In this document: positions 34,114 through 57,036 of the stretch, one piece after another | Position numbering within the stretch: the first letter of the stretch is position 1 | Layout: the number at the start of each line of letters is the position of its first letter | NCBI GenBank assembly: GCA_001783215.1 | Contig: MFRA01000006.1 | Coordinates: forward strand, 57,968-121,967 | From: Candidatus Magasanikbacteria bacterium RIFOXYD1_FULL_40_23 | Lineage (GTDB): Bacteria; Patescibacteriota; Patescibacteriia; Magasanikbacterales; GWA2-37-8 | Direction: 5' to 3' | DNA length: 64,000 bases | Position numbers and translations under genes: made by a program | Notes under the pieces: generated by a model | The model's database searches: none | Told to the model about the DNA's origin: nothing | Seen by the model: only the letters and a program-made list of their open reading frames with translations

Positions 34114-35732
<1,619 letters not shown>

Positions 35733-36625: not shown

Positions 36626-36668
36626 TATTTTGCCGCTGTGATATTATAAATTTAGGAGGCAACAAACC

Positions 36669-36860: not shown

Positions 36861-36872
36861 GGTTCTATTACA

Positions 36873-36950
36873 AACTTGCCGCGAGGTGCTTATAGGTATT
36901 TCGCGGCCTATACAAAAACAATCTTATAAATTAAGGTTGTTTTTTAATTA
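36873..36950 (+). repeat. structured hairpin + 'ctatacaaaaacaatcttataa' + terminator-like element (copy 2)
   Basis: gccgcgaggtgcttataggtatttcgcggcctatacaaaaacaatcttataaattaaggttgtttttt. The stem differs from copy 1 by compensatory changes (ccacga/tcgtgg versus gccgcga/tcgcggc). Confidence 0.6.
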
Positions 36951-37083
36951 AACAAAGTCGGGCTGCATATTATTGAAACGCAGCGTGGTAAGTATTGACA
37001 AGTCGCATATTTTATGGTTGTGTGGCTATACACAATCACAAAAAAATTTCACTTGTTCCCAGTTGGGAGCGAGAGGGGGTTCA

Positions 37084-40825: not shown

Positions 40826-41065
40826 GTGTCAGAAGTAAAACGAAAGAAAAGTGAGTCTTTTGAAGCTTTTTTGCGTAGAGTAAAGAAGCGTTGGCAGCAA
40901 TCCGGCAAAATTCTACAAGTCAAAAAAATTCAATTCTACGAACGACCAAAGAATAAAAACATGCGCAAAAAAAGCGCCCTACATCGTTTGGCTGTTTCCC
41001 AAAAGATTGAATACTTGAAGAAAATCGGCCAGATGCCAGAAGAGACAAAGAGGTTCGGAAGATAA
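40826..41065 (+). CDS. rpsU: 30S ribosomal protein S21
   Basis: 79 aa, basic. 'SFEAFLRRVKKRWQQSGKILQVKKIQFYERP' matches the bS21 pattern (ALRRFKR...EVRRREFYEKP). Confidence 0.6.
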   Translation: MSEVKRKKSESFEAFLRRVKKRWQQSGKILQVKKIQFYERPKNKNMRKKSALHRLAVSQKIEYLKKIGQMPEETKRFGR

Positions 41066-41086: not shown

Positions 41087-43111
41087 ATGCTTCAATGGAT
41101 GCGAGAAAAATTTGTTCTAACTCTGAAAATCGCCATAACTACGATTGTGTTTTTATTGGCGATTTTTAGTTTCTCGCCCCCAGCTCACGCCCAAAGCATA
41201 GCCGATGCAGATAGTGAATTGCAAACCGGTGTACAGGTTATCAATCAGCCCTTAGGCCTCGCCTCTACCGACATTAGATTGGTAGTAGCCAGAATAATTC
41301 GCGTGGCTTTAGGATTTCTTGGTACCGTAGCTTTAGCCCTGATGATTTATGCCGGTTATTTGTGGATGACAGCCGGTGGAAATGAAAGTCAGATAGAAGA
41401 TGCAAAAAGAGTTTTAATAAATGCAGCTATTGGTTTGGCTATTATTCTTAGCGCATACGCTATTGTTAGTTTTGTAATTAGCAAATTAGTAGACGCTACT
41501 TTGGGTAATGGTTTTGGAGGAGATAATTTAGTTTTAGAACCACCAATATCAGAAAATTTCCAGGGCAGCGGCGCGTTGGGTCAGATTGTAAAGGATCATT
41601 ACCCTTCACGAGACCAATCCGAAGTTCCTAGAAACACTCGAATTATTGTTAGTTTCCGCCAGCCAGTTAGGTTGGATAGTTTCGTAGACGACACTACCGG
41701 CGATGGTGTGCTTGGAAATTGTAGAACTACTGTGGCAAATTGGTATAACGATTGCGATAGATTACGAAATGTGAGTGATAATTTAATAAATATTAAGCGC
41801 GCAGACAATAACGAGAGTATTTTTGGTGCAGTTGTTTTGGGTACAGTTACAACCGAAAATAATATTACCGGTGTATATACGATAGTGATTAAGCCTATTA
41901 CAGACGCAGCCAATCCTGGCGGAGGATACTTGGGTAGTACCAACGAACCAGTTAGCTACATTGTTCATATGGGTCCAGGCATGTTGTTAGATGATCCTGC
42001 CAACAATAACCCTTCTGTATTTAGAGCAACTATTTTGGGTAACAATTATTATGAATGGAGATTTACAAATGGCACAGCCCTAGATATTTCTCCTCCAACT
42101 GTAACGAGTGTATTTCCAGAAGACGGAACTACCGAAGATAAAAATAGTGTATTGCAAATTAATTTTAATGAACCAGTAGACCCAATTGGTATTACTGGCA
42201 GATTTAATCAGGGAGCTGGCCACTATTATTTAGATGGTCAAAATGTTTTTCTAAAATCAAATAACAGCGCTTTGCCCCAAGGTAATTTTAGTTTAACCAA
42301 TGGTTACCGTACTTTGGAATTTGCGCCTTCGCAAGAATGCGGAAGAAATGCTTGTGGAAATAGAGTGTTTTGTTTACCTGTTTGTGATGTGGCCGGTGCC
42401 AATTGTACTCAGGATGGCTACGAAGTGCTGCTGCGCGCAGCCAGAACAATAAATGCAGGCTCGTTCGAATCTCAACCGTTTTCCGGTATTACTGATTTAG
42501 CTGGCAATGCTTTGGATGGAAATAGAAATAATATTCCAAATAACGCACCTACCACTTTGCCGATTTTCCCAAATCAAAAACAACCAGATAACTATTTCTG
42601 GGATTTTACAATACGAAATCAAATAAATACCTCCTCTCCATTTATACAAACTATCGTACCGGGAGTTGATGCGCAAAATATTAGCCGCAACCAAGAGTTG
42701 AGCATGACATTTAATAAAAGAATGCGTGCAGAAACAATGTATAATATTGGTTTAGAAGAACAGCCAACGCATCCGGTTCCTATTTGGAGAGTGCCTTCTG
42801 TTTTGTTTAATGAAGACGATACTACTTATACACGATTAGGTCATGGACCGTTTTTGGATGCAATAAGACAGTATTATTTTACAGTAGTTAGCTCTACTGT
42901 AGAGGATGTTCATTTTAATTGTTTTTATCCTGGCAAGGGTCCGAGAATGACAGTAATTCCAAATACTGTTATTTCTCCAAATTGTGAAGATTCAAATCCG
43001 CAGAATTGTTGCCAAGTAATAAATGATCAAAACAGTGATTTTTGTTGCAATGGCTCAGCTGGTCCAAATATGTCGGCCTGTATGGATTATTTAAGACAAA
43101 ATAGTATTTAA
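41087..43111 (+). CDS. large secreted protein (674 aa): signal peptide + VirB2/TrbC-like two-TM 'T4SS pilin' module + Big/Ig-like extracellular domains
   Basis: Signal 'IFSFSPPAHAQS'. Pilin-like module 'IIRVALGFLGTVALALMIYAGYLWMTAGGNESQIEDAKRVLINAAIGLAIILSAYAIVSFVISKL'. Big-like domain 'PPTVTSVFPEDGTTEDKNSVLQINFNEPVD'. Cys-rich C-terminus. Confidence 0.75.
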   Translation: MLQWMREKFVLTLKIAITTIVFLLAIFSFSPPAHAQSIADADSELQTGVQVINQPLGLASTDIRLVVARIIRVALGFLGTVALALMIYAGYLWMTAGGNESQIEDAKRVLINAAIGLAIILSAYAIVSFVISKLVDATLGNGFGGDNLVLEPPISENFQGSGALGQIVKDHYPSRDQSEVPRNTRIIVSFRQPVRLDSFVDDTTGDGVLGNCRTTVANWYNDCDRLRNVSDNLINIKRADNNESIFGAVVLGTVTTENNITGVYTIVIKPITDAANPGGGYLGSTNEPVSYIVHMGPGMLLDDPANNNPSVFRATILGNNYYEWRFTNGTALDISPPTVTSVFPEDGTTEDKNSVLQINFNEPVDPIGITGRFNQGAGHYYLDGQNVFLKSNNSALPQGNFSLTNGYRTLEFAPSQECGRNACGNRVFCLPVCDVAGANCTQDGYEVLLRAARTINAGSFESQPFSGITDLAGNALDGNRNNIPNNAPTTLPIFPNQKQPDNYFWDFTIRNQINTSSPFIQTIVPGVDAQNISRNQELSMTFNKRMRAETMYNIGLEEQPTHPVPIWRVPSVLFNEDDTTYTRLGHGPFLDAIRQYYFTVVSSTVEDVHFNCFYPGKGPRMTVIPNTVISPNCEDSNPQNCCQVINDQNSDFCCNGSAGPNMSACMDYLRQNSI

Positions 43112-43128
43112 GGAGTAAAATTAGAGGA

Positions 43129-46100
43129 GTGGAAATTATGGAAAAAAATAAGTTTAAAAAAATAATAATTGCATCTTTATTCTCGGTTTTGGTAACCGGT
43201 AGTTTGTTTTTTCTAAAAGATTTAGTTTTTGCTCAAACTATAAGTAGTACAGAATTGGGATTGGGTCAAATAGAAGCGCCTCTTGGATTGCCATCTACAG
43301 ATATCAGAATAGTGGTGGCTAGAATTATTCGTGTTGCGTTAAGCTTGCTCGGAACAGTAGCGCTAGTTCTAATGTTGTATGCAGGGTTTGTCTGGATGAC
43401 TGCCGGTGGAGAGGCTTCAAAAATTGAAGACGCAAAAAAAATAATGGTTAATGCCGCTATTGGTTTGGCTATTATTTTGTCTGCTTATGCAATTACAAGT
43501 TTTGTAATTAGTAAATTAGTAGATGCCACAACGGGTGGGCCGGGAAGTGGTACAGGTGGGCCAGGGCCAGGGGATAACCCATATCTTCCACCTGGAATTT
43601 TTTATGTTGATAATTTGCCGCAAGGTGGACAAATGTGTATTCGCAATGTTCACCCAGCAATCACATTTAATAGGCAGGTAGATTTGGCCACTCTCAGTGG
43701 CAATTTAGTAGTGAGAGAAGCTAATGGCAATGTATATCCGGGGCAGTGGCAGTCATTGGGTCAGAATACCGTAGCATTTGTACCAACCGGAGATTGTGGC
43801 GGCGGTCCAGCCGACTGTTTTGCGCCTTCTACAACCTATAATGTGCATTTCCAAAATGCAGCTTCAATCAGGTCTAGCGAGGGCAATCTTACGCTTAATT
43901 GTACATTTAGAGCGGGTTGTGGAGATGTACAATTTATTACCGGCAATGGCGTAGATAGAACCGCTCCTCAGGTAAGAATAGAGCCTATTTCTAGTGATTT
44001 ATTGCGTGTTGGCACAACCGTACCAGTGGTGGTTAGTTATACCGACGACAACGGCGTGCAAAAGATAGATTTATCGGCTGATACTTATTTTGTTGGCAGT
44101 CAAACAGTATCGGGTTGTCAAAGCACAGGCTCTGTTACTATAAATTGGCCGACAGTTGGAATTCCTACCGGCCAGCATACTTTATATGCTACAGGTTTTG
44201 ATTGGTCTGCATTAAATTACACCACTTCTACAAATGTTAATCTGTTACCGCAACATTGTTTTGATAATGCCTTGCAAGCAGATTTGGGTGAAGTTCGGGT
44301 AGGCCCACCAGCTTGTGGAGGAGAATGTGGTGCTTGTTCTGGTACGCCTTGTACCAATAATACTCAATGTGCCAGCGGGTACTGTGATACGCTTTCAGGA
44401 GTTTGTGTAGATAGAATGAGGATAAATGGTGTTTCTCCTCTTACCGGCGGGCCAGGGACATTTGTTTCTATTTCAGGAAATTATTTTGGTAACACACCCG
44501 GTAGAGTTTTTATAAATAATGTACTAGCACCTTTGGCGCCTTGCGGAGGAAGTGCTTGGTTGCCATGGCAAATAATTACAGAAGTGCCTGCGGGTGCAAG
44601 TACCGGTCCGATTAGAGTAGAAACTGCCACTAGTAGTGGTACAAGTTTTGTAGATTCTACCAACGATGCCTTTGGTCCGATGATTAGTAATTTTACAGTT
44701 GACAATGTTGTTCGTCCTGGTTTGTGCGGTGCTACTCCAGCCAACGGCTTGCCTGGTTCAGAAACTTCTCTTTCCGGCAGGCGTTTGGGTAATTCTCCAG
44801 GGCAAGTATCTTTTGGTATAAACAATGTAGTAGTAAGTTTGGCAAACTGGGCAGATACTTTGGTGCGAGCCAGGGTACCAATGGGTGAAGTTGGTCCGGT
44901 AGCAGTAAAAGTTATTCAAAATAATGTAGAAAGTAATAGTATTAGATTTTTTGTAGAGCAAGGGGTTAGCGATTCTGTGGCAGTAATTTCTAGCGTATCC
45001 CCAGATCATGGGGCTAGGGGAGAGTATATTACTATTACCGGTAATAATTTTGGTAATCAAATAGGAAGAGTTTGGTTTAAAGAAAATATTAATGGTCAGC
45101 CAGGAGATGCAATAGATGGTGATTTTAGTTTTCCGCAAGGATGTCAAAGTACCTGGACAAATAATCAGATAATTGTAAAGTTTCCTCTTGGTAGTGGTAC
45201 ACCAGGAAGATCTTATTTTGTGCAGGTACGTCCAGCCGATGCTTCTCAAGGTCCAAGCCCAATAGGTCCCACATTTAATTTAGAAAATGGCCAACCTTCT
45301 CCTGGTATTTGTAATATTAATCCAGTGTCTGGTCCGGTGCCGTTTCCTGGCGCTGCGCCTCGTATGCAAATTGTTGGAGAGTATTTCGGCGCAACCCCAG
45401 CTGTTTATTTTTGGACAGAAGGCGCTTCGCCAACCGCTATAACTGGTCGTTTATTGTCCGGTTTAGCCACGGTTACCAATTTAGTTGTTGGACAATCTAT
45501 TTCCACAGAACCTCCAGCCGGTACTCGTACCGGTCCGGTAGTTGTATTTAGAAGTTCAGATAATAAAATAAGCAATCCGGCAAATTTTTCTGTATTAGAC
45601 TGCGTAAGAAATAATAATACTTGTACAGCTCCAAATACCCATTGTTGTGTGTCTGGCGCAGAAGCTGGGTTGTGTCGACCAACTAACCAGCTGTGTGCAG
45701 GAGAAACCATTACGGCTGGATATATTTGGCGTTTTAGTACCAGAGATATTCCACCGGTTCCTCGTGTAGTAGAAAGATGTAATAACAATACAGATTTAGG
45801 ACTAAATATTCCTAGCCCATCCCCAAGTATTTTATGGGATTCTTCTGCTGGTGACCCTCATCATAATGTTTGTCGAAGCGCTACTGTCGTAACAGAATTT
45901 AGTTTGCCAAACATAAACAATATTGCTAGAACCAATTTATTAGTTAATGAATGCCAGGCAGACACAATAAATGAAACATCTAGAACATGTACAGTTGCAC
46001 AAGTAGTGCCTATGGCAGGTGCTGGGGATTTTGTGCCGCAACTTAGCACAGAAAATACAAGTTATTTAGAATTAAATCCAGACGCTACTTATAATACAGG

Positions 46101-49100
46101 CAAGTGGAAAGATAATACTTGGTATCAGGTGGTGTTAAGGTCTGCAATAAGTTCAGGTACCGGCACCTCCACTGCTTTTTTGGCGCAAGACAAGCCTTGT
46201 GGTCCGGGATCTTCATACTGTTTTGTGTTCCGATCGGATTCTCAGGATTGTAGAATGAGAAGTGTGGTAATAACGCCGTATACTTATTGGACTTCGGTTT
46301 TGGAAGCTCCTATTAAGAAAAGAAATAGCGTAGATGATGTAGGTGTTGATGTGGTTTATAATGGTCACGGTTTGAGCACACAACATTGTGTTATGATGAA
46401 TACAGATGCGTTTGCTTGGTCCTGGGATACCAGTAACCCGACTTACTCAAGTCTTTTTGTCACAGATAATTCTTGGGCCAAATTTGCGGCCTGGGCTAAT
46501 ACGGTGGGTGTTGGTTTAGTTAACCCAAATAATGCTGTTAATGTAAGAGCTACTGCTAGTCTGGCTTCAGCAAACTATACTGGTGTTAGTTCGCTTACTA
46601 TAGATTTAAATAATCCAGAGGTTGTAGATTTTTGGCCTAAATGTTTGCAGTCATGTACAAATGCCGAAGTGGGTGTTCGTTTTAATACCACCATGTCAAC
46701 CAGAAACCTACCAGGTTCAGCAGTTAGCGGCCCGATTAAATTATTAAGGTGTAATGATGAAAATTGTTTTAACACTACACCAGTACTTTCTTCTTCGGAT
46801 GTAATTTTGGACAGTACCGGTGATTACAGAGTATTAAAATTAGCAAACTCTGTTTCTGGCTCATTAGAGTTGTTGCCAAACACTGTTTACAAAGTTGTCT
46901 TGTCTGTTTCTACAACCAATATTAATTCCCCAGAGTTACTATGGTCGGCAGCTGTTATAGGAGATCCGACTACTTTTTCTAAGCCATATAACAAAGAATT
47001 TAGTTGGAGATTTAAAACCAAAGCAGATAGATGTAGAATTGCCAAGGTAGATGTAACACCAAATATTTTTACAGCTTCTTTTATTACCGATAAAAATATT
47101 TATAGCGCTCAGCCATACTCTTCTCCAGACACTTGTAGTACTCAAGGTCAAAAATTAAATCCTTGGTCTGTTAGTTGGAATTGGAGTTCTGCCCAACCAC
47201 AAGTAGCAAGCATAACCACTTTTAGTTCCAGAGGGAACAATCCTTTCTGCACTTTAAGTTGTACGCGCAAAGGTAGTAGTATTGCAGCCGGTTCTCCGTC
47301 AGTACCAGTTTGTGGAAATAATGTAGTAGAAGCTGGAGAAAATTGCGATTCACCAAATAGAGGCGCTGGCTGTAGTTTGGATTGTCGTAGATTAGGAAAT
47401 ATGAGCAGTTCTACTTGTGGTAATGGTGTTATTGAACCTAACTTGGGAGAAACATGTGATCGCGGTTCTGCTACTTCGTCCATAGGCTGTAGTGATGTTT
47501 GTTTGCACACTGGTTCTTCTAATACCACAGCCCCTGGAGCGGTTAATGCTTCCATTTGTGGAAATGGCATGGTTGGTAGTGGAGAAGATTGTGATGTTGC
47601 AGTTTCGCAGTCTGGAAACACATTATTAAATGGTTTAGTAGGCTGGTGGACTATGGATGCTGCAGATGCAAATGCTACACAAGTCTTTGATAGAAGTGGA
47701 AATAATAATGTTGCAAGTATATTTGGTCCAACAATCGCCACAGGAACGGTCGGCGAAGCAAGGGTTTTTGATGGTGTCGATGATTATCTTTCTCTCCCAA
47801 CACCAAGAGCCAATACCACCACTATTTCTCTGTGGTATAAGACCAATACCATAGTTTTACCTAATAATCATAAAATGTTATTTTCTGGTAGTGTTAATGC
47901 TACTTACATAAGTTTATTTTCAAATGGTGTAGCTAACCCGTTTGTTTCTTTTTGGATTGGAAACACCCAAAGAACATTGAGCAGCGGTGTTCCTTCGGTA
48001 GTAGGCAAATGGACACATGTTATAGTTACTTGGGATGGTGCATTTATTAGGATTTATGTAGATGGAATTCTTAGAAATACTAGCGCCAATTTTTCCGGAG
48101 CTGCTTTAGTCGGCTTAGATTCTGGAGTGGGGTATATTGGTAAGTATCGGGCAAATAACGGTTATGAAACATCTGGCTCTATAGATGATGTGCGAATTTA
48201 TAATCGTGTTCTTTCGGCTGCCGAAATTACTTCCCTTCATCAGTACGGTCAAAATATTATAAATCAATCAACTGGTTGTTCCGAAAGATGTTTGCATTTA
48301 GGTACGCCTATATCTAGTAGTTGGTGTTTTACCAATAATGCTACTCGGGGTGGCTTTTCTCAGACAGACTTTACAGCTGCTTGTAGAAATTCTATTAGTC
48401 GTTGCGGTAATGGTGTGGCCGATCCAGACGAAGATGTTGGTTGTGATTTGGGAGGAGGCAACAAAGCTTCCTGGTGTAATATTTATTGTTTAGCAAACAA
48501 TATTTCTAATCCAGAGTGTGCCGTTGGTGCTGAAGGTTGTAATAGTGTTCGTCAGCATATTGGTTCGTCACTTCTTTACTCAACGCCTTCTCTTTGTGGA
48601 GATGCGGTAGTTGGAATTGGTGAAGATAATTTCTGTGAAACTACTTTGCCAAATACACACACTGGCACTAATCCTTGGGCATTAGTTACCGGAGTAGGAA
48701 GAGGTATTGCTACCGGCGTACCGCCAACTCAAGTTGCATATATTCAAGCCAATACCTCAGATGGAACCGCGAGTGGTCCGGTTGGTGATAGTGGTCAGTT
48801 TGTTATTCCTTGCGGCTATACTTCCGATGCAGAGTGCCAATCTAGAATGGGTGCTGGCTGGGGAGTTGCTACAAACGGTTGTTGTTATTTGCGTCCGCAG
48901 CTAGTTAGCGTTACTCCAGGCAGTACTTCTACAAACCGATTTAATATTTGCCCAAACACTGCCATAGAAGCTTTGTTTGATCAAGATATGGATGTGGGCA
49001 GCGTAATAAATAATGTAGTAGTAGCCCGCGGAACAACGTCTACTTCTTGTGGTGCCAACGAAGATGTCACATCTCTAGCGCTGCTATTAGAAGATGGAAA

Positions 49101-50541
49101 TAAATTACCTTGGTACAAAAAAGTATTTGCTACGATTATTAATTTATTTAAATATATTACTGGTCAGCCAGCCTCTGCTTTGCGCACAGAAGTTCTTTCT
49201 ACTAGATGGTGTGCCGGAGAAGATGTAGGCCGAGCTGATGTTGAAATGGCTAGCGGTACTTTGGGTAAGGTTGTATTTAAATTAAATCGTCCACTTGCCA
49301 CTGATACAGATTATTTCGTAGCTCTTAAAGATGGAATAAGAAGCAAACAGGGGATTAGCATTGGTAGAAACAGTGCAACCAACAGACCTATAGGTTGGAA
49401 ATTTATAACTGGTGAAAGAATTTGTGAAATTGATAGCGTAGATGTTGATCCTCCACAAGTTTATTTTGATAAAGTTGGTGCTACCTCCACTCTCCATGCC
49501 TCCGCTTATACTGCCAGCTCTGCTCGCATACAAACTATACCAGGCTTCTATTCTTGGGAGTATATTTGGCAGCCTGTAAATAATTCTTATGTGGCTTTGC
49601 AAGTTACAACCTCTTCGTTTAATACTATTACTTCCGAAAATCATAATGGTGAAACAGATGTTCGTGCTACAGCCGTAATCACTAGCAATATCTATTCTGC
49701 GCAAGCTGGTGCCGTAGCTACCGGCAAATCCCATATAATTGTATTTTTATGCGAGAATCCATGGCCACCAAAAGATTTGTATATGGGTGGCAATGGTCCT
49801 TATATTATTTTCCCGTATGAAGATAAGATTGGTAATAATGATGGATTTGATTTAGCTTTAAACGCTTTCAACAATACCGCTATTCCAGCTTCTCCTAGTG
49901 GTGGATATTTTAATTTCCGTACTTACTATTGTGCCGACAACGCTGCTTTTGGTACAGATGATGATTTGCCATATCTACGTCCGGCCGTTCAGGTTTCTGC
50001 ATCCGTGGTAGCCGACACTCCTACCTCCAGTTTAAAGAGATTTATTTTTAGTAATAATGACAATAGTGATGGTATCGGAATTGCAGTATTTTCTAATTCG
50101 CAACACTTAACTGTTTCGGAGTGGTTTGAAAACGACCGCGCTTTGGGAGGCCAAGGGTTTACTGGTAATATGCAAACAGCAAAAATCGACGGTTATGACG
50201 CTCTTACAGATGGTAATAATATATATGTTGATGCGTTAAATTATTCTAATTCTTCTAACAATCTATTTTCCAATATTTATTTATTTAGCATAAATTCTAA
50301 CGCCCAAACAGAAACAAGAAAAGTCTTTGAGCAACTAATTGCCAATCTTAGATTTAATACAAACCTAACTAACTATGGTTATTGTGGTTCTACGATGGCT
50401 AATCCGGGAGCGTCTACCACTTGCCAAACTGATTTGGATTGTTCTGGTGCAGAAGTTTGTTCGGTGCAGATAGATAAGTTAAAAAGAAATTATATAAGAT
50501 TAAGGGATCTAAATGAGATTCAAAATTTGCTGGGACCATAA
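43129..50541 (+). CDS. giant (2470 aa) surface protein: signal + T4SS-pilin-like two-TM module + IPT/TIG domains + Myxococcus-type Cys-rich repeats + LamG domain
   Basis: N-terminal module about 80% identical to that of the 41087 protein. Four or more IPT-like units ('INGVSPLTGGPGTFVSISGNYFGNTPGRV'). CGNGV(V/I)E.GE.CD repeats. LamG ('WTHVIVTWDGAFIRIYVDGILRN...IDDVRIYNRVLSAAEI'). Confidence 0.8.
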   Translation: MEIMEKNKFKKIIIASLFSVLVTGSLFFLKDLVFAQTISSTELGLGQIEAPLGLPSTDIRIVVARIIRVALSLLGTVALVLMLYAGFVWMTAGGEASKIEDAKKIMVNAAIGLAIILSAYAITSFVISKLVDATTGGPGSGTGGPGPGDNPYLPPGIFYVDNLPQGGQMCIRNVHPAITFNRQVDLATLSGNLVVREANGNVYPGQWQSLGQNTVAFVPTGDCGGGPADCFAPSTTYNVHFQNAASIRSSEGNLTLNCTFRAGCGDVQFITGNGVDRTAPQVRIEPISSDLLRVGTTVPVVVSYTDDNGVQKIDLSADTYFVGSQTVSGCQSTGSVTINWPTVGIPTGQHTLYATGFDWSALNYTTSTNVNLLPQHCFDNALQADLGEVRVGPPACGGECGACSGTPCTNNTQCASGYCDTLSGVCVDRMRINGVSPLTGGPGTFVSISGNYFGNTPGRVFINNVLAPLAPCGGSAWLPWQIITEVPAGASTGPIRVETATSSGTSFVDSTNDAFGPMISNFTVDNVVRPGLCGATPANGLPGSETSLSGRRLGNSPGQVSFGINNVVVSLANWADTLVRARVPMGEVGPVAVKVIQNNVESNSIRFFVEQGVSDSVAVISSVSPDHGARGEYITITGNNFGNQIGRVWFKENINGQPGDAIDGDFSFPQGCQSTWTNNQIIVKFPLGSGTPGRSYFVQVRPADASQGPSPIGPTFNLENGQPSPGICNINPVSGPVPFPGAAPRMQIVGEYFGATPAVYFWTEGASPTAITGRLLSGLATVTNLVVGQSISTEPPAGTRTGPVVVFRSSDNKISNPANFSVLDCVRNNNTCTAPNTHCCVSGAEAGLCRPTNQLCAGETITAGYIWRFSTRDIPPVPRVVERCNNNTDLGLNIPSPSPSILWDSSAGDPHHNVCRSATVVTEFSLPNINNIARTNLLVNECQADTINETSRTCTVAQVVPMAGAGDFVPQLSTENTSYLELNPDATYNTGKWKDNTWYQVVLRSAISSGTGTSTAFLAQDKPCGPGSSYCFVFRSDSQDCRMRSVVITPYTYWTSVLEAPIKKRNSVDDVGVDVVYNGHGLSTQHCVMMNTDAFAWSWDTSNPTYSSLFVTDNSWAKFAAWANTVGVGLVNPNNAVNVRATASLASANYTGVSSLTIDLNNPEVVDFWPKCLQSCTNAEVGVRFNTTMSTRNLPGSAVSGPIKLLRCNDENCFNTTPVLSSSDVILDSTGDYRVLKLANSVSGSLELLPNTVYKVVLSVSTTNINSPELLWSAAVIGDPTTFSKPYNKEFSWRFKTKADRCRIAKVDVTPNIFTASFITDKNIYSAQPYSSPDTCSTQGQKLNPWSVSWNWSSAQPQVASITTFSSRGNNPFCTLSCTRKGSSIAAGSPSVPVCGNNVVEAGENCDSPNRGAGCSLDCRRLGNMSSSTCGNGVIEPNLGETCDRGSATSSIGCSDVCLHTGSSNTTAPGAVNASICGNGMVGSGEDCDVAVSQSGNTLLNGLVGWWTMDAADANATQVFDRSGNNNVASIFGPTIATGTVGEARVFDGVDDYLSLPTPRANTTTISLWYKTNTIVLPNNHKMLFSGSVNATYISLFSNGVANPFVSFWIGNTQRTLSSGVPSVVGKWTHVIVTWDGAFIRIYVDGILRNTSANFSGAALVGLDSGVGYIGKYRANNGYETSGSIDDVRIYNRVLSAAEITSLHQYGQNIINQSTGCSERCLHLGTPISSSWCFTNNATRGGFSQTDFTAACRNSISRCGNGVADPDEDVGCDLGGGNKASWCNIYCLANNISNPECAVGAEGCNSVRQHIGSSLLYSTPSLCGDAVVGIGEDNFCETTLPNTHTGTNPWALVTGVGRGIATGVPPTQVAYIQANTSDGTASGPVGDSGQFVIPCGYTSDAECQSRMGAGWGVATNGCCYLRPQLVSVTPGSTSTNRFNICPNTAIEALFDQDMDVGSVINNVVVARGTTSTSCGANEDVTSLALLLEDGNKLPWYKKVFATIINLFKYITGQPASALRTEVLSTRWCAGEDVGRADVEMASGTLGKVVFKLNRPLATDTDYFVALKDGIRSKQGISIGRNSATNRPIGWKFITGERICEIDSVDVDPPQVYFDKVGATSTLHASAYTASSARIQTIPGFYSWEYIWQPVNNSYVALQVTTSSFNTITSENHNGETDVRATAVITSNIYSAQAGAVATGKSHIIVFLCENPWPPKDLYMGGNGPYIIFPYEDKIGNNDGFDLALNAFNNTAIPASPSGGYFNFRTYYCADNAAFGTDDDLPYLRPAVQVSASVVADTPTSSLKRFIFSNNDNSDGIGIAVFSNSQHLTVSEWFENDRALGGQGFTGNMQTAKIDGYDALTDGNNIYVDALNYSNSSNNLFSNIYLFSINSNAQTETRKVFEQLIANLRFNTNLTNYGYCGSTMANPGASTTCQTDLDCSGAEVCSVQIDKLKRNYIRLRDLNEIQNLLGP

Positions 50542-50701
50542 ATTAAATAAAGATTTGTGGTATAATATACCCGTTCATCTAACATATATGGGCTAAAAGC
50601 CACATATATACCCGCTCACTCGGAAATATCCAGATTTAATATTTATAACTCGCAAGCGATTATAAATACCTCACTGGCTGTTTCCCTCATTCATTTCGTA
50701 T

Positions 50702-53700
50702 ATGATAAATAAAAAACTAATAGCAATATTTGTAGTAACAGTTTCAGTCTTTAGTTTTTGTATTTATCAAAAAGTAATCGCCGCTCCGACACTAAAAGAG
50801 GGAACATATTTGTCCGGTCAAACTCTGAGCGTATGGCCATCCTGGTCGTTGTTGGGCAATACTTTGGGAAGATCTCTTCCAACAGACCCAATCAACCAGC
50901 TAGGGCTAGCTGGCACCTGTGCTACCACCACCAATAGATTTTGTTTAAATAACTCGCAATGTCCAAATAATGAAGCCTGTGTTTTGCACGACCCAAACAC
51001 TGGCTGGAGTACTGCCGACAGGCGTTTTAGTTTTGCTTGTAATCGTGAATCTTTTGCCTATAGGTATATGGTTGCCACTTCTACTGGCGCATATACAGTG
51101 CGGGCCAATTTTGAAGACCCGGGATTTACCCCGGCTAATTTTAATAATTTTGTATCTGGGTTTATTAGCACCAGTATTTTTAAAATAAATGAAGTTTCTG
51201 GTATATGTAATTTTGATCAAGAAATTTCCACCCTTCAGTCTGGCGTTTGTGGAGATGGTAGATTAAATACGGATAGAGGAGAGCAGTGCGATCCGCCTGG
51301 TCGAATAGAGTACGAAGCTGGACCTTGTATCACAATGATAAAAAATTTAACTGTTTGTAATAACAATTGTAGATGGACTCCTTCTACCACTCTTTGTAGT
51401 AGCTTGCGTAAATGTGGAAATGGGGTAAAAGAATCTCTTGAAACTTGTGATGACGGTGCTTTAAATGGAAGATACAATCATTGTAATACAACCTGCAATG
51501 GTTTTAGTCCTTTAGGCAGATGTGGAAATGGCACTCTAGAATCTGCTTATGAAGTCTGTGACCCTGGCACTGGTAGAGAAAGATATGGAGCAACAGGTCA
51601 ACAAAGTTCTTGTAGTTGGGACTGTCAAAATTGGGGACCGTATTGTGGTAATGGCACTGTTGAAGATCAATTTAACGAAGAATGCGATGGTTCAAAAACT
51701 TGTACATTAGGAGAAAGCTCTGGGCAAAGAGTCTGTACTAGTAATTGTAAAATGGCGCCCAAAGCAGGCCTAGTTGCTTGGTGGAGCTTTTTTAATGGTG
51801 GCTTTACAGACAGCTCCGGAAACGGCAACAACGGTAGTTGTGCTCCGGCAAACAGTTGTCCCACAAACACACAAAGTCTTTCTGATGGTCGCAGATTCAT
51901 GATGTTCCAAAGTAACGACTCTTTCATTGTAGGTGGTAGTCCTACCGTTAATCTTGTTAGTTCCGGTACCATCCAAGCCTGGATAAAACCCCAAGGCTCG
52001 GCAGGACTTAACCAGCGTGTGGTAGAAAAAGGCGCTTCTGCATACGGATACTGGTACGATTTAGAGGTAAATGCCACTGCTAGTGGAACGGCTAGATTTA
52101 ATTTTGCCAACTATTCATCTTTCTCAGTAGATTCTACTTCCCGCATTCCAACTAGTACTTGGACTCATTTGGCCGGAACATTTGAAAGAATAGGTCAAAC
52201 TAACTACATTAAAATTTATGTAAATGGTGTCTTGGAAGGTTCTAGAGAAATTCCTCATCCTCCATTTGTTAGTACTCAAGGCTGGGCACCATTAACTGTA
52301 GGTGCATCCAGAGCGCAAAATGGAACTTATTCAAACTTTTTCTTTGGCGACATAGATGATATTAAAATATATAATCGAGCCATATCTGCTGCCGAAGTGC
52401 TAAGTGATTACCAAAACAATTGGCCATGTTCAGCCACCTCTTCTCAGGCTATCTCAAATCAACCCGGTGTATGTGGAAACAATGTTGTTGATTCAAATGA
52501 GGCCTGCGATAGAGGGGTAGATAATGGACGAGTTTGTACGCCTGGTTATGGTAGTAGTTGTACATACTGTTCCACTGATTGCCAAAATACAATCGATGTT
52601 CAGCCAACCCAATATTGCGGCAATGGTATTATCGAAGCATCCGAAAAATGTGATCAGGCCGGCGGGGTGATATATGCTGCTGCCACAAATACTAATAACA
52701 CCACTCTTCCTACAAGAGATGCAGCTCGCAACGGTTATCAAGAGCTAGCTTGTTCATCCGAAACTAGTCCTGCACACACCCTTAAAAAAGGAACAAAGGA
52801 TTGTAGCAATTGTTCTTTGGGTGTAGTGCGAAATTGTGTCCAGTGCGGTGTTAAATCCGACGGCGTAAGTGCTGGTGGAGGGCTCATAAATGTTTTGCAG
52901 GCTCGAACAAATCCGGATCCGCTTTTTGCTGCGGACTTCGTTACTGGAACTCTAGATCTTTCTATTGGTCCTTGTTATTACATGGGTATAACTGGCATGC
53001 AAAATGTATGCAACAGATCTGGCTCCTTGCTCAATCCTTCAAATCCGGTGGGTGGTACGGTTTCTAAGTATGCAAACTCAACCGATCGTTCAAATTATGT
53101 TTTGCAGAATCCATATGGAGTTGGTAATGCTTTGGTTAATAGCGATACGATGTGTTCCACAGATGATCCAATTCGTAGAAGGTATTGGATGTATGTAAAC
53201 AAAGATTGGACACGTCCGTTTAGCATTCCAATAGTAGATCAACCCCAAACTTGGCAATATGATATGGTTTTATCACCAATAGTGCTACAAGCGTTTAGCA
53301 GAGATGGCGGCGTAACGATTAGAAGAAATCAAGATGTGCGCGTGGTGGTAAGCTGGGTTGGCCCCGATGATTTTTCTAGCGGAATTATCAATCCGTTTGT
53401 TACCCCTCAAGAAATTAATGGTGCTTCATATTGTCCATACGCCTACTGTGGTTCGCAGAGAAGAAGTTATTCAACAGGCGTAGATTATTTCAATACCCCA
53501 AATGCTAATTGGTATGGCGCTTTTTATCATGGCTACAACATAACTACTGGCCAAACCAATGCCGAAGCATTTACAATCAATACGGGTGATATGTCTGGTA
53601 ACACATACTCTTTCTTTGTTAAGTCGCCTAGCGTACCTATCAGACAGTTTAGAAATACGGCCAGAATGAAAGTAGAAGTTTATTTACCGGAACCAGGAGA

Positions 53701-54205
53701 CTTTGTTTATCCAACATTTTGTTGTGAGCCAACCTATACTAACTTAAATCGACGTAGATTTGGCACGCCTGTTAAGACCTATTATCTATTAGGCGCAGCA
53801 CCTTCGGACAACCAAAACGCCAAGTATTGGCAAGTGTTTAATATCAACAGGCCAGGTGTTACCACCACTGTTTCTTCTACGGATATTATTGATGTAAGTA
53901 GTATTGTTACTGGGCCGGCGAATTTTTTATATACAGGCCCTCTTGTTGTCAGACCTCCTTGTACGCTTGCAGATTGGCAGAGCTCAATTACCTATAGTTC
54001 TGGCAATCCTGCTGCAGTAATATGTTATGCGCCAGACACATACACTACAACTTGGTCAAAAGTACCAACATCAGATTGTGCTGGTGGAGTACCGCAACCA
54101 GCTACGGTAACTGCTACTTGTCAGCCTCTCCCTGTTATCGCCCCTGTTTCGTCGCCTATTGTTTCGCCGCCCATTGTTGATCCAAATCCAATATTTTTCC
54201 AATAA
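50702..54205 (+). CDS. large (1167 aa) secreted Cys-rich repeat / LamG-domain protein
   Basis: Signal peptide. Six or more Myxococcus-type Cys-rich repeats (CGDGRLNTDRGEQCD, CGNGTLESAYEVCD, CGNGIIEASEKCD...). LamG ('WTHLAGTFERIGQTNYIKIYVNGVLEGS...IDDIKIYNRAISAAEV'). Pro-rich C-terminus. Confidence 0.78.
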   Translation: MINKKLIAIFVVTVSVFSFCIYQKVIAAPTLKEGTYLSGQTLSVWPSWSLLGNTLGRSLPTDPINQLGLAGTCATTTNRFCLNNSQCPNNEACVLHDPNTGWSTADRRFSFACNRESFAYRYMVATSTGAYTVRANFEDPGFTPANFNNFVSGFISTSIFKINEVSGICNFDQEISTLQSGVCGDGRLNTDRGEQCDPPGRIEYEAGPCITMIKNLTVCNNNCRWTPSTTLCSSLRKCGNGVKESLETCDDGALNGRYNHCNTTCNGFSPLGRCGNGTLESAYEVCDPGTGRERYGATGQQSSCSWDCQNWGPYCGNGTVEDQFNEECDGSKTCTLGESSGQRVCTSNCKMAPKAGLVAWWSFFNGGFTDSSGNGNNGSCAPANSCPTNTQSLSDGRRFMMFQSNDSFIVGGSPTVNLVSSGTIQAWIKPQGSAGLNQRVVEKGASAYGYWYDLEVNATASGTARFNFANYSSFSVDSTSRIPTSTWTHLAGTFERIGQTNYIKIYVNGVLEGSREIPHPPFVSTQGWAPLTVGASRAQNGTYSNFFFGDIDDIKIYNRAISAAEVLSDYQNNWPCSATSSQAISNQPGVCGNNVVDSNEACDRGVDNGRVCTPGYGSSCTYCSTDCQNTIDVQPTQYCGNGIIEASEKCDQAGGVIYAAATNTNNTTLPTRDAARNGYQELACSSETSPAHTLKKGTKDCSNCSLGVVRNCVQCGVKSDGVSAGGGLINVLQARTNPDPLFAADFVTGTLDLSIGPCYYMGITGMQNVCNRSGSLLNPSNPVGGTVSKYANSTDRSNYVLQNPYGVGNALVNSDTMCSTDDPIRRRYWMYVNKDWTRPFSIPIVDQPQTWQYDMVLSPIVLQAFSRDGGVTIRRNQDVRVVVSWVGPDDFSSGIINPFVTPQEINGASYCPYAYCGSQRRSYSTGVDYFNTPNANWYGAFYHGYNITTGQTNAEAFTINTGDMSGNTYSFFVKSPSVPIRQFRNTARMKVEVYLPEPGDFVYPTFCCEPTYTNLNRRRFGTPVKTYYLLGAAPSDNQNAKYWQVFNINRPGVTTTVSSTDIIDVSSIVTGPANFLYTGPLVVRPPCTLADWQSSITYSSGNPAAVICYAPDTYTTTWSKVPTSDCAGGVPQPATVTATCQPLPVIAPVSSPIVSPPIVDPNPIFFQ

Positions 54206-54216
54206 AATAAAGTTGT

Positions 54217-54645
54217 ATGGCAAATAGTAAAAAAATTATAATTTTCTTAATTGTTACAGCGCTCGCGGTGGGTGGGTTCTTCTTGTTGAGAACTTTTGTA
54301 GGTGTAAAGACAAAGGTTGTTTTGCCGCCAGCCACAGAGGATTCTGCCTATGCAAATATAGACAAAGTCAAACAGCAAGAATTTTACGATACTCTAAAAA
54401 AGAGTTATTCATCCGATCAAGACATGGATGGATTGCCAGACAGTGAAGAGCCAAATTATCAAACAAGTGCCACTTCTTCCGATAGTGATAATGACGGCCT
54501 ATCTGACTGGCAAGAGATTAATATTTATGGAACTAGTCCTATAAAAACCGATGATGACGGTGATGGGTATGCCGATGGTTACGAAGTGCGCCGTGGTTTT
54601 AATCCGAAAGGGGAGGGTAAATTACCAGAAACAAAAAAACCATAA
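54217..54645 (+). CDS. membrane-anchored protein with aspartate-rich (TSP3/dockerin-like) Ca-binding repeats, paralog 1
   Basis: N-terminal TM 'IIIFLIVTALAVGGFFLL'. Repeats 'DQDMDGLPDSEE', 'DSDNDGLSDWQE', 'DDDGDGYADGYE'. Confidence 0.65.
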   Translation: MANSKKIIIFLIVTALAVGGFFLLRTFVGVKTKVVLPPATEDSAYANIDKVKQQEFYDTLKKSYSSDQDMDGLPDSEEPNYQTSATSSDSDNDGLSDWQEINIYGTSPIKTDDDGDGYADGYEVRRGFNPKGEGKLPETKKP

Positions 54646-54663
54646 AATTTTAATTAGTATTAT

Positions 54664-55464
54664 ATGTTTGATGAGCAAAATCAAAACCCAATAGTTCCAA
54701 AAAATTTGCCTACTGAACCGGAGGATATGTTTGCCGGCGTAGACAAAAATGCAGGTCAGCCACCAGTAGGTGAATCTGTGCCAGATGCCTTATCCAATGG
54801 TCTTTTGAAGAGAAAAGAGCCATCAAGAAATGAGCCAGGCTTATTGCCAACGGGTGAAGAGGGTGTGGATTTAGGGAAATATAAAATGAGTGAGCCTATT
54901 TTGGGTAAAATTTTGTTGTTTGTAGTAATTATTTTATTTTTAGGCGGTCTAGCATATGCGGGTTGGAGAATTTTTTATAGCGCCAAGAGCGGTCCAGTAG
55001 ATAAATTACCAGTTCAAACTGTTCCAACCAATACTCAAACAGAAGTTCCGCCATCTACAAATCAAGTTGGTGTGTCTAGCAGTCTTCCGGCTCAAATAAA
55101 TAATGATCAAATATTGTTTGGCCAAGGTGTTGATTTGGATAAAGACGGTTTGGATGATGTGCGTGAGAAAGAGATCAAGACTAATCCACAGAATCCGGAT
55201 AGTGATAGTGACGGCATAAATGATGGTGATGAAGTAATTTTGTATAAAAGTCTTCCTCTTAATGCCGACACAGATAGTGATGGATTAAGCGATGGAGATG
55301 AGGTGTTGATTTGGAAAACAAATGTGCTAAACCCAGATACTGATGGAGACAGTTACCCAGATGGTGCAGAGGTAAAGAATGGGTATAGTCCAGTGGGCTC
55401 AGGAAAGCTCTTTAGTCCGCCAACCACAAGCACTACAAGCTCTGCTTCAGTATCAACCACCTAA
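54664..55464 (+). CDS. membrane-anchored protein with aspartate-rich (TSP3/dockerin-like) Ca-binding repeats, paralog 2
   Basis: TM 'ILLFVVIILFLGGLAYAGW'. Repeats 'DLDKDGLDDVRE', 'DSDSDGINDGDE', 'DTDSDGLSDGDE', 'DTDGDSYPDGAE'. Confidence 0.65.
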   Translation: MFDEQNQNPIVPKNLPTEPEDMFAGVDKNAGQPPVGESVPDALSNGLLKRKEPSRNEPGLLPTGEEGVDLGKYKMSEPILGKILLFVVIILFLGGLAYAGWRIFYSAKSGPVDKLPVQTVPTNTQTEVPPSTNQVGVSSSLPAQINNDQILFGQGVDLDKDGLDDVREKEIKTNPQNPDSDSDGINDGDEVILYKSLPLNADTDSDGLSDGDEVLIWKTNVLNPDTDGDSYPDGAEVKNGYSPVGSGKLFSPPTTSTTSSASVSTT

Positions 55465-55477
55465 ATATTATTTTGGT

Positions 55478-56593
55478 ATGTTTGGAAAAAAACCGGATTC
55501 TTCTTTAGAACAATCATTGCCAAATATAAATGTGCAGACTATACCTGCCGATTTTTATGGTGGAGTAAATCCAGTGGTAAAATTTAAAAAAGTTGAAAAA
55601 GAAGTACTTTTGGATTCCAAACCAAAGCTAACACCGGCAGAAAAGAAAATATTAGATAAAATTACATCTGCTGGCAATGACCAGCCGTTGCACGCAGTAA
55701 ATATCTTGGCTAATAAAAAGTACGCTATAATTTTAGGTTTTGTTTTGTTTATAGTTATATCGGCAGTGGTGGGTGGATATTATTATTTGCAAATGAGAAA
55801 TAGTAATACAGGCACTACTCCTACCGCTCCCGAAATAACTATACCTGTTACCGTACCAGAAACCACAGAAACACCCCCAGTAACAACCGAAGTACCAACT
55901 ACCACTGATTCTGCCCCTAAATTTTTAGCAGATGCTCCAATTGAATTCCCATCAAATTTATTAGGCGATAGTGTGGATTTGGATAAAGATGATATAAGCG
56001 ATATGGCCGAAGAGTTGTTTGGTTCCGATCCAAGTAAGCCAGACACGGATGAAGATGGGTACGAAGATGGGCATGAAGTTTTCTATTTATATAATCCGGC
56101 CGGAAAAGAGCCAATGAGGATAATTGAATCAGGATATGTAAAAGAATATCAAAACCCAACATTTGGTTATAAGCTTTTCTATCCAACAGATTGGGCGGTT
56201 GGGGCAGTAGATGATACTGCTCGGGATGTTTTGTTTAGCACCATTACAGGCGAAAACATTGAAGTGAGAACATTTGATTTGCCAGCCAATCAAACTTTTG
56301 CAGACTGGTTTAGAGAATGGGCCCCAAATCAAAATTTCCAAAATAATATAAATGTTCAAACCAAGTTTTTTGAAGCCGGTAAAAGCAGAGCCGATAGTTT
56401 GGTCTATTACTTTGCAGACAGCGCTCATGTTTATGCTATAATCTATCACACCACTGATTCTAATACCGTTAATTTCCGTTCCATTATAGTTATGATGGCC
56501 AGAAGCTTTAGAACAGCCGGGTTTGTCCCGCCAGAAACTGCTCCAGATACCAGTGCGTTCCCTACAGAAATGCCTGAATCTATAAATCAATAA
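55478..56593 (+). CDS. membrane-anchored protein with aspartate-rich repeats plus a C-terminal globular domain, paralog 3
   Basis: TM 'AIILGFVLFIVISAVVGGYYY'. Thr/Pro linker. Repeats 'DLDKDDISDMAE', 'DTDEDGYEDGHE'. The start is set at the ATG at 55478; the ORF track begins at 55379 and overlaps the upstream gene. Confidence 0.6.
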   Translation: MFGKKPDSSLEQSLPNINVQTIPADFYGGVNPVVKFKKVEKEVLLDSKPKLTPAEKKILDKITSAGNDQPLHAVNILANKKYAIILGFVLFIVISAVVGGYYYLQMRNSNTGTTPTAPEITIPVTVPETTETPPVTTEVPTTTDSAPKFLADAPIEFPSNLLGDSVDLDKDDISDMAEELFGSDPSKPDTDEDGYEDGHEVFYLYNPAGKEPMRIIESGYVKEYQNPTFGYKLFYPTDWAVGAVDDTARDVLFSTITGENIEVRTFDLPANQTFADWFREWAPNQNFQNNINVQTKFFEAGKSRADSLVYYFADSAHVYAIIYHTTDSNTVNFRSIIVMMARSFRTAGFVPPETAPDTSAFPTEMPESINQ

Positions 56594-56595: not shown

Positions 56596-57036
56596 TTGAC
56601 TAGCATGTTATCTCTAGATTTTAATAAACGAGTGCGATGCCCGTGGAGCTTGGCAGATATACAAAAAGTATTCAAGGTAATCCATAAAAATACAAAAATA
56701 AATGGAGAAGTAGAAGTAAATATCGTTGGGGATAAAGAAATAAAGGATTTAAATTTTAGGTATAGGGGGTTAAACAAACCAACGGATGTTTTATCTTTTG
56801 CTTGGAAAGAAGATAAAATTATTAGAACAAATTATCTGGGCCAGATTTATATTTCTTATCCGCAAATATCTCGTCAAGCCAAAGAATTAGCCATAGAAGC
56901 CAAGGAAGAATTCGTAAGAATGTTGGCGCACGGATTCCTACATATTATAGGCCACGATCATATAGAGAAGAAAGAAGCAAAAGTTATGTTTGGAATTCAA
57001 GAAAAGATAGTAGAGCAGTATTTTAGTAAAAAATAA
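56596..57036 (+). CDS. ybeY: rRNA maturation endoribonuclease YbeY
   Basis: Metal-binding 'HGFLHIIGHDH' (H-x3-H-x5-H). 146 aa. Confidence 0.85.
   Translation: MTSMLSLDFNKRVRCPWSLADIQKVFKVIHKNTKINGEVEVNIVGDKEIKDLNFRYRGLNKPTDVLSFAWKEDKIIRTNYLGQIYISYPQISRQAKELAIEAKEEFVRMLAHGFLHIIGHDHIEKKEAKVMFGIQEKIVEQYFSKK

Follow-up and report, generated by a model that had tools for sequence, protein, structure and literature searches.

How uncultured, ultrasmall bacteria of the Patescibacteria might contact other cells or surfaces is the question raised by a locus of six genes in Candidatus Magasanikbacteria bacterium RIFOXYD1_FULL_40_23. The DNA analysed, hereafter the window, was a stretch of 64,000 nucleotides (nt) from contig MFRA01000006.1. 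The six genes, here called g1 to g6, lie in it between rpsU and ybeY. An original prediction, made from the letters of the DNA, described them as coding for three giant surface proteins (g1-g3) and three membrane proteins with calcium-binding repeats (g4-g6) that might together mediate attachment. Following it up with profile searches, structure prediction and comparison of related loci, we find it somewhat probable that the locus encodes a fibrillar-adhesin-like surface apparatus of Magasanikbacteria, anchored N-terminally by a pilin-type hairpin and equipped with TSP3 proteins at its base. To date, the locus is in our view the strongest candidate for the means by which these bacteria contact cells or surfaces.

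Pilin-type hairpins at the N-termini of g1 and g2

Analysis of g1 and g2 showed the same topology signals in both, namely a signal peptide and two transmembrane (TM) helices. Hydropathy segments were located at amino acids (aa) 9-27, 63-88 and 113-131 of g1 and 11-29, 66-84 and 109-127 of g2, and the N-terminal 132 aa of the two proteins were 58% identical. The signal peptide of g1 comprises aa 1-35, with an A-Q cleavage motif conserved in the orthologue alignment, and is followed by a two-helix hairpin of the VirB2/TrbC type (aa ~60-133); the hairpin of g2 lies at aa 56-129. The window copies scored 25.1 (g1) and 26.5 bits (g2) with T4SS_pilin (PF18895, cutoff 26.6); TrbC (PF04956) gave 19 bits and NF045849 23 bits. 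PF18895 was matched by all 17 aligned members of the g1 family (best expect value, E, 1.7e-10), and precomputed PF18895 matches are present on orthologues of both g1 and g2. The hairpin is a member of PF18895, the VirB2/TrbC-type pilin hairpin family. In the VirB2 topology the part C-terminal to the hairpin lies outside the cell, and the C-terminal remainder of g1 and g2 is on this ground expected to be extracellular. No known surface anchor (LPxTG, SLH, LysM, autotransporter and the like) was matched by Pfam in the locus proteins. Domains and topology thus back the predicted combination of extracytoplasmic, membrane-tethered giants with membrane proteins bearing Ca-binding repeats.

Behind its hairpin, g1 consists of Big_5-type immunoglobulin (Ig)-like domains (48.6 bits) and a Cys-rich C-terminus, with 12-13 invariant Cys in the orthologue alignment. 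Domain and motif searches of g1 found no TIG, LamG or CG[ND]G repeat. The Cys content was 2.1% in g1, 3.1% in g2 and 4.5% in g3, and zero in g4-g6.

The hairpin is widespread: a search with that of g1 in 1.84 billion representative proteins returned 28,538 matches at E<=1e-3. Several of these relatives (P0358, P0359, P0371, P0375, P0378, P0412 and P0453) are proteins of 400-820 aa with 4-8 tandem hairpin copies, and many of 200-300 aa carry two copies.

Kinship with pilins raises the possibility that g1 and g2 are modular VirB2 pilins, extracted from the membrane and polymerised by a type IV secretion system (T4SS) encoded elsewhere, so that a conjugative-type pilus would display their ectodomains on its surface or at its tip. 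The PF18895 and TrbC matches agree with this, as does the architecture of signal peptide and two TM helices. VirB2-like pilins and T4SS are common in Patescibacteria and essential to the epibiotic growth of Saccharibacteria (PMC12102498, PMC12857230), and T4SS loci also occur in members of the class ABY1 (PMC12102498). A precedent is provided by type IV pilins with LamG or vWA modules (PMC8179133), among them PilC, whose lectin module resembles the LamG of g3. However, neither the annotated open reading frames (ORFs) of the window nor the examined flanks of related loci included virB4, virB6 or virD4. An ectodomain of 2,300-4,800 aa per subunit is a poor fit to a helical pilus, save as a rare tip or minor subunit, and the hairpin could equally be a mere membrane anchor. 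Nor is any of the proteins of the size of a small hairpin-only pilin, with 674 aa in g1, 2467-2470 aa in g2 and up to 4,978 aa in fused relatives. We consider T4SS-driven polymerisation improbable.

Domain composition of g2 and g3

The g2 protein opens with its signal peptide and hairpin, followed by a Gly-rich linker, Big_5/Big_7 domains, several IPT/TIG domains (aa ~430-850) and a beta region of ~500 aa without family match (aa 880-1380). Its distal part comprises Cys-rich acidic repeats with a LamG domain amid them, a Big_5-like domain and a conserved C-terminal domain. In g3 the signal peptide is the sole membrane-type signal, with no TM helix pair. Next come the Trp-rich N-domain (aa 28-180), which is conserved, and four Cys-rich acidic repeats. 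A LamG cassette (aa ~350-575) separates these from another two Cys-rich repeats, and the protein closes with an all-beta C-terminal region of ~500 aa (aa ~640-1140) that is likewise conserved. The Cys-rich repeats matched myxo_disulf_rpt (TIGR02232; 25.4 bits in g2 and 33.3 bits in g3, cutoff 20.8) and, in a slice of g2, DUF4215 (PF13948; 33.9 bits, cutoff 27).

Across the locus, T4SS_pilin, Big_5, Big_7, IPT/TIG, Laminin_G_3, DUF4215/TIGR02232 and TSP3_bac were matched in Pfam and NCBIfam, the best domain E-values (1e-25 for LamG, 1e-12 for TSP3_bac) lying far past chance level. All families that the original prediction had named for such searches (T4SS_pilin, TIG, LamG, the Myxococcus Cys-rich repeat and TSP3) were accordingly found. 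Its attribution of IPT/TIG, Big-like, LamG and Cys-rich domains to the giants holds for the group as a whole, g1 having Big_5 only. The Cys-rich repeats, described there as many, are present in modest number, ~3-5 in g2 and 6 in g3. No enzyme or catalytic domain was found in the six proteins, either in slice-wise Pfam searches (E<=0.1) or in the model of the g2 C-terminus.

Structure prediction for g3, made from 43 sequences, gave predicted local distance difference test (pLDDT) values of 80-94 for the LamG and the all-beta C-terminal region; the Cys-rich repeats were poorly modelled. LamG is a lectin-type jelly roll, and the g3 LamG model matched carbohydrate-binding modules as well as the lectin module that the modular pilin PilC of Streptococcus sanguinis carries. 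Whole-model fold searches of g3 were dominated by the LamG and gave no fold assignment for the C-terminal region. When g1 and g3 were used for PDB profile searches, nothing but LamG or noise was obtained, e.g., methane monooxygenase at E 0.004. An AlphaFold2 model of the g2 C-terminus contained Ig-like arrays resembling those of adhesins and S-layer proteins.

Fusion and fission of g2 and g3

Relatives of g1 were encoded in 393 stretches of a species-genome collection holding one genome per species, and the best 80 of these 393 loci were mapped. In 12 genome loci g2 and g3 formed a single ORF of 3,090-3,502 aa, in which, as read from the sequence, the C-terminal helix of g2 continued directly into the mature N-domain of g3. 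The 12 fully read fused relatives were the more distant ones, with 36-49% g1 identity. The best 150 of the 28,538 hairpin matches included 35 proteins with 3,000 aa or more (3,122-4,978 aa), every one of which had the same colinear arrangement. Since the two genes are fused in so many relatives, g2 and g3 are likely to act as one physical unit, with g3 as the distal part of the g2 fibre (Rosetta-stone argument).

Where loci were read end to end, the split form, in which g3 has acquired a signal peptide of its own, occurred mainly in close relatives of the window, with two exceptions. The spacer between g2 and g3 can be read as the scar of a fission of the ancestral fused gene. Its length is not conserved, as the close relatives L007 and L008 have 36-41 nt at this place. 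An extended -10-like sequence, TGgTATAAT (50558-50566), was noticed in the spacer by eye, the pattern scan not having listed it, and is a possible candidate for an internal promoter. The promoter and terminator pattern scan itself yielded counts close to shuffle expectation and was uninformative.

A pseudopilin (GspG/type IV pilin) head had been suspected at the junction of the g2 C-terminus and the g3 N-terminus, from the pattern RNYxRLRDLxxIExALxxYAxxNNGxYP...LPxDPIN. It was dropped as unsupported: no pilin match was obtained there by Pfam on three fused junctions, by a PDB profile search (E<=10) or by NCBIfam.

A conserved backbone with variable cassettes

Among 13 close orthologues, the identity of g2 was 50-75% and even along its length, with the highest values at the C-terminus. 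The exception was the LamG segment (aa ~1500-1710), which was 100% gapped in all 13 aligned orthologues and is a lineage-specific insertion between Cys-rich repeats. Similarly, the LamG was the least conserved segment of g3 (27-48% identity, 22-29% gaps), and its flanks were 60-78% identical. More distant g3 orthologues kept the conserved ends and had fn3, PKD or disintegrin domains at the LamG position. The two most distant fused relatives, L088 and L089 (36-38% g1 identity), have there what reads as a VWA-like segment (YFLIDVSGSM... / YFLVDASNSM...), and carry a LamG ahead of the conserved N-domain remnant in their g3-equivalent part. This combination of an even backbone with varying LamG segments points to a constant scaffold with swappable binding cassettes. 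Episymbiotic host contact, which the original prediction gave as an example, may be a function of the locus, but so even and fairly strong a conservation of the backbone, with variation confined to the LamG-type cassettes, is unusual for a host-specific adhesin.

Such a backbone would also suit a structural coat, in which g1-g3 would chiefly make up the regular, S-layer-like layer observed on the surface of ultrasmall groundwater bacteria, anchored by the hairpins and braced by TSP3 and Ca2+, with attachment secondary or absent. Consistent with a coat are the even and fairly strong conservation along the 2,470 aa of g2 and the fixed core-genome site by ybeY-dgkA-ftsA-ftsZ, near genes for penicillin-binding proteins (PBP) and Mur enzymes. 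In PDB, moreover, the g3 LamG was closest in sequence to an 'S-layer domain-containing protein' (4qvs, E 3e-11). Ca2+ dependence of S-layer assembly is also well known. Against a coat, Pfam and NCBIfam showed neither SLH nor any other S-layer anchoring domain, and the matches to S-layer proteins may reflect generic Ig folds. Monomers of 3,000-5,000 aa would be atypical of lattice proteins, and exchange of distal LamG, VWA, fn3 and PKD modules suggests ligand recognition rather than lattice contacts. A coat is regarded as unlikely, although it is the most serious of the alternatives considered here.

The TSP3 membrane proteins g4-g6

Each of the three small proteins contains a single TM helix and has its repeats on the C-terminal side of this helix. 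The g4 protein is a single-pass, N-in signal-anchor protein with three TSP3-type loops; g5 has a cytoplasmic N-terminus of ~78 aa, a TM helix and four TSP3 repeats. Both matched TSP3_bac (PF18884) well above the cutoff of 25 (47.1 bits for g4, 44.8 bits for g5). In g6 a cytoplasmic N-terminus, a TM helix and a Thr/Pro linker precede two TSP3-like loops, one of them degenerate, and a PsbP-like C-terminal globular domain. The D-x-D-x-D-G-x-x-D-x-x-E loops are spaced 22-23 aa apart in all three proteins. Paralogy of g6 with g4 and g5 in this part was supported by BLASTP (E 3e-8 and 2e-8, respectively). The predicted trio of paralogous membrane proteins with such repeats was thereby borne out, with the qualification that g6 has two loops only and no Pfam TSP3 match of its own. 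The PsbP-like domain scored 22.2 bits (cutoff 23.5), and a few orthologues have a precomputed PsbP match. A shared origin with a PsbP/LpqN-like subdomain of the g2 C-terminus found no support (hhalign probability 1.8%).

The cytoplasmic N-termini of g5 (54664-54900) and g6 (55478-55720) contain the motifs NLPxEPxDMFxG, conserved among orthologues, and IPADFYGGxNPxxKFKK, invariant in 42 orthologues, respectively; they were the sole two matches to their motif pattern in the window. The C-terminal peptide of FtsZ, DDDLEIPAFIRKKMGI, is encoded 2.4-3.5 kb downstream of them. Mimicry of this peptide by the motifs was considered and set aside as weak, the resemblance being a loose IPA-F only.

Dockerins and TSP3 repeats alike are ~22-residue EF-hand-like Ca2+ loops. 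The original prediction had suggested on this theme that the repeats of g4-g6 might act as dockerins, for which LamG or IPT modules in g1-g3 would be the partners, and the repeat spacing and the adjacency of co-directional genes fit such docking. The profile searches spoke against it: Dockerin_1 (PF00404) was not matched in g4-g6 at E<=0.01, and g1-g3, searched whole and as 19 overlapping slices, gave no Cohesin (PF00963) match at E<=0.1. The repeats instead score as TSP3_bac, a different Ca-binding family, and resemble those of CglD and MtsD. In addition, LamG cassettes were gained and lost, in the lineage of the window and in relatives, while the TSP3 proteins persisted; because of this variability against a constant partner, LamG is unlikely as a fixed counterpart of TSP3. 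Cohesin/dockerin-like pairing is therefore very improbable.

Conservation and spread of the block

The g1 family comprised 298 matches of constant length with 46-88% identity. Besides lineage labels of Magasanikbacteria or unclassified Patescibacteria, about half of the best 80 loci were labelled 'uncultured Gammaproteobacteria' and one 'Candidatus Udaeobacter', both of which are taken to be mislabels. The order lepB-hisS-rpsU-g1-g2-g3 was colinear in essentially all sufficiently long loci, down to 34% g1 identity. The full order hisS-rpsU-g1-g2-g3-g4-g5-g6-ybeY-dgkA-ftsA-ftsZ was present in three genomes with 50-55% g3 identity. Orthologues of g4 held the same position in related loci, and in the fused relatives a TSP3 gene lay directly behind the giant ORF. 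When metagenomes were scanned with g6, each of the ~43 contigs with a length of 9 kb or more carried g2-g3-g4/g5-g6-ybeY-dgkA-ftsA, even where the g6 relative had 28-31% identity. Among the genome loci and metagenome contigs mapped, none had the giants apart from the TSP3 genes. The synteny comparison thus found a constant order rather than scattered, unlinked orthologues, in agreement with the predicted functional unit. An origin from a mobile element or phage was rejected, since the locus lies within the same frozen housekeeping block in every relative.

It is conceivable that there is no single apparatus, i.e., that the fibre consists of g1-g3 alone, and that frozen synteny keeps g4-g6 next to it as envelope proteins of unrelated function, for instance in division or the wall. 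Synteny is equally strict for g4-g6 and for the housekeeping genes around them, g6 ends 2 nt before ybeY, ftsA and ftsZ follow within 1-2.5 kb, and the conserved cytoplasmic motifs of g5 and g6 would also suit such functions. On the other side, g4 starts 11 nt past g3, a TSP3 gene stands directly behind the giant ORF even where g2 and g3 are fused, and the two gene classes never separate in the mapped loci. We judge two unrelated sets of genes to be rather unlikely.

Proposed architecture and its weak points

We propose that g1 and g2 would be exported by Sec and their signal peptides cleaved, after which the two-helix hairpin would keep them in the cytoplasmic membrane with everything C-terminal to it outside. 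The g2 protein would provide the long stalk, in which many disulfides would stiffen a series of Ig-like, IPT/TIG and novel beta domains. The g3 protein would constitute the distal third of the fibre, here a separate secreted subunit that would dock non-covalently on the C-terminal domain of g2 and display an exchangeable ligand-binding cassette (LamG here) between rigid Cys-rich acidic repeats. As a short g2 paralogue with a common anchor, g1 would probably co-assemble with g2 via the hairpins. With an N-in/C-out orientation, g4-g6 may bind Ca2+ through their extracellular TSP3 loops and probably serve as a membrane-proximal base or bracing, and the cytoplasmic motifs of g5 and g6 could be contact sites for a partner. 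Judged by fold alone, the distal LamG, VWA, fn3, PKD and disintegrin modules would be adhesive, and cells or surfaces would be the target. The overall logic of anchor, stalk and distal binding head would be that of a fibrillar adhesin. Roughly estimated from ~25 beta-sandwich domains, such fibres would measure some tens of nm.

Several observations weigh against a fibrillar-adhesin-like apparatus. The hairpins of g1 and g2 in the window fall slightly short of the T4SS_pilin gathering cutoff (25.1 and 26.5 vs. 26.6 bits), and the g3 N-domain, the supposed docking part, was poorly modelled (pLDDT 25-74). The backbone is evenly conserved, whereas fibrillar adhesins usually evolve fast. The position of the locus in the core genome, by cell-division genes, would fit a structural role in the envelope equally well. 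The tie of g4-g6 to the giants consists of adjacency, tight spacing and shared location only, and as the housekeeping neighbours (lepB, hisS, rpsU, ybeY, dgkA and ftsA) are equally syntenic, adjacency is no proof that g4-g6 work with g1-g3.

Comparison with described systems

Fibrillar adhesins of Gram-positive and Gram-negative bacteria have been surveyed (PMC8286594, PMC9210967). Like these, the locus encodes long single-polypeptide fibres with a repeated Ig-like stalk (Big, TIG) and a binding domain far from the anchor, with LamG/lectin and VWA as typical binding modules. Unlike them, its anchor is N-terminal, so that the orientation is reversed, and is a VirB2-type hairpin; the anchors listed in the survey (PMC8286594) include LPxTG, SLH, LysM, autotransporter barrels and others, and no VirB2-type hairpin. 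The backbone, moreover, is strongly conserved and slow-evolving, and the fibre is split in two genes in this lineage and accompanied by three dedicated TSP3 membrane proteins.

With the VirB2/TrbC-like pilins of Patescibacteria T4SS, g1 and g2 share PF18895, the hairpin architecture with signal peptide and two TM helices, and the phylum. As far as those pilins are covered in the sources (PMC12102498; Wang et al. 2023 via PMC12857230), they are small, arranged in tandem arrays and usually located near virB4. In contrast, the hairpins of the locus bear ectodomains of 540 aa and 2,340 aa (~4,850 aa at most in fused relatives), and the locus is in a housekeeping context, with no T4SS genes found in the 64-kb window. 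A fusion of an N-terminal 'carrier' to binding modules, including concanavalin-A-like/LamG domains, is also known from the modular type IV pilins, such as PilB (vWA) and PilC (lectin) of S. sanguinis (PMC8179133). There the carrier is a class III signal peptide with a single alpha1 helix, whereas here it is a Sec signal with a two-helix hairpin, and the passenger is an order of magnitude larger; the N_methyl motif (PF07963, IPR012902) had no match in the six locus proteins.

Two repeat families of the locus, TSP3_bac (g4, g5) and myxo_disulf_rpt/DUF4215 (g2, g3), recur in Myxococcus surface proteins (CglD and MtsD; TIGR02232 and DUF4215 proteins), where, judged by the family names, they belong to adhesion or cohesion proteins. 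The match is confined to the repeats (23-38 bits vs. full-length cutoffs of 400-800), and protein architecture, phylum and envelope type differ.

Searches of the literature on Magasanikbacteria, T4SS_pilin, VirB2 fusions and LamG or Cys-rich surface proteins of the candidate phyla radiation (CPR) found no description of the locus, which accords with the statement in the original prediction that it matches no described system. Its design logic is known from fibrillar adhesins, and a hairpin anchor for giant surface proteins is a type not included in the surveys. A bolder generalisation would be that such hairpins are a widespread, unlisted carrier of giant surface proteins (700 to ~5,000 aa) in Patescibacteria, that g1 and g2 co-assemble by way of their near-identical hairpins into a membrane-rooted or pilus-like organelle of several subunits, that the g2/g3 fibre, its lectin/VWA head being swappable, is the organ by which Magasanikbacteria attach to partner cells, and that the TSP3 proteins couple it in a Ca2+-dependent manner to the envelope and, via their cytoplasmic motifs, to the cell interior. 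We hold it unlikely in its entirety; if true, it would define a 'modular VirB2 pilin' class parallel to the modular type IV pilins.

Locus layout and genomic neighbourhood

Coordinates are collected in Table 1. The six co-directional genes lie where the original prediction had placed them. Its statement that they are almost without intergenic space holds for gaps of 2-26 nt and fails for the 160 nt between g2 and g3. An apparent 85-nt overlap of g5 and g6 is an ORF-calling artefact, as g6 starts at ATG 55478. A hypothetical protein deposited from a Candidatus Magasanikbacteria metagenome-assembled genome (RIFOXYD2_FULL_39...) matches the resulting 371-aa form with 100% identity, and g6 orthologues are 372-386 aa long.

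Table 1. Positions in the window of the locus, its genes, selected internal features and the flanking genes.
Feature	Position (nt)	Strand	Remarks
Whole locus, six co-directional ORFs	41087-56593	+	between rpsU and ybeY
rpsU	40826-41065		upstream flank of g1
g1, 674 aa	41087-43111	+	ORF
g1 hairpin	41264-41485		VirB2/TrbC-type
g2, 2470 aa from GTG	43129-50541	+	public gene calls: ATG 43138, 2467 aa
g2 hairpin	43294-43515		VirB2/TrbC-type
LamG (Laminin_G_3) cassette within g2, aa ~1500-1710	47626-48258	+	Pfam 88-95 bits
g2/g3 spacer, 160 nt	50542-50701	+	sequence reading
g3, 1167 aa, secreted	50702-54205	+	ORF
LamG cassette within g3	51749-52426		aa ~350-575
g4, 142 aa	54217-54645	+	ORF; Pfam TSP3_bac E 2e-12
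g5, 266 aa	54664-55464	+	ORF; Pfam TSP3_bac E 1e-11
g6, 371 aa	55478-56593	+	start corrected; nominal ORF 55379-56593
ybeY	56596-57036		downstream flank, 2 nt past g6

Upstream of the locus are genes for SMC, S16, KhpA and trmD, a 16S rRNA gene, tRNAs, lepB and hisS; downstream, ybeY is followed by dgkA, ftsA, ftsZ, nrdR, pyruvate kinase and serine hydroxymethyltransferase (SHMT). Contigs identical to the window are present in several groundwater metagenomes.

Another giant secreted protein of 1691 aa is encoded at 26833-31908 (+), between the KhpA-like gene and trmD. It has an N-terminal TM/signal segment, fn3 domains near its C-terminus, 0.5% Cys and no pilin-type hairpin, and holds the same position in the identical contigs. 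The 16S rRNA gene is complete (34107-35730, +); its 1624 nt, compared with the 1533-nt model, suggest ~90 nt extra. Behind it are ~2.7 kb of small ORFs without family match (35866-37809), followed by tRNA-Ile (38415) and tRNA-Val (38498). As no 23S gene was found in the window, the rRNA genes appear unlinked.

Further upstream, a run of genes at 1795-9020 (+) encodes a nitroreductase-family protein, an ELFV-dehydrogenase-like protein, a 520-aa ORF without family match, a ThiF-like protein, an alpha/beta hydrolase and a 7TM-sensor histidine kinase, and may be a small modification or biosynthetic cluster. A bactofilin gene (9155-9634, +) has a DAGK-like kinase and tRNA-Leu as neighbours. With PBP2/MurE-like genes at 14051-17073 and a VanW-domain protein at 18807-20735 also present, the window abounds in genes of the envelope and cytoskeleton.

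Implications

The pair of fused and split forms of g2 and g3 offers a natural handle on subunit docking, and the exchange of LamG, VWA and fn3 modules one for linking the type of head to habitat or partner. The breadth of the anchor module is underlined by the 28,538 representative hairpin proteins. If the fibre were instead an envelope lattice, the long-unassigned surface-layer proteins of these ultrasmall cells would have been identified. Almost nothing is known about cell contact in Patescibacteria beyond the cultured Saccharibacteria, and the locus provides a concrete, lineage-wide candidate for it.

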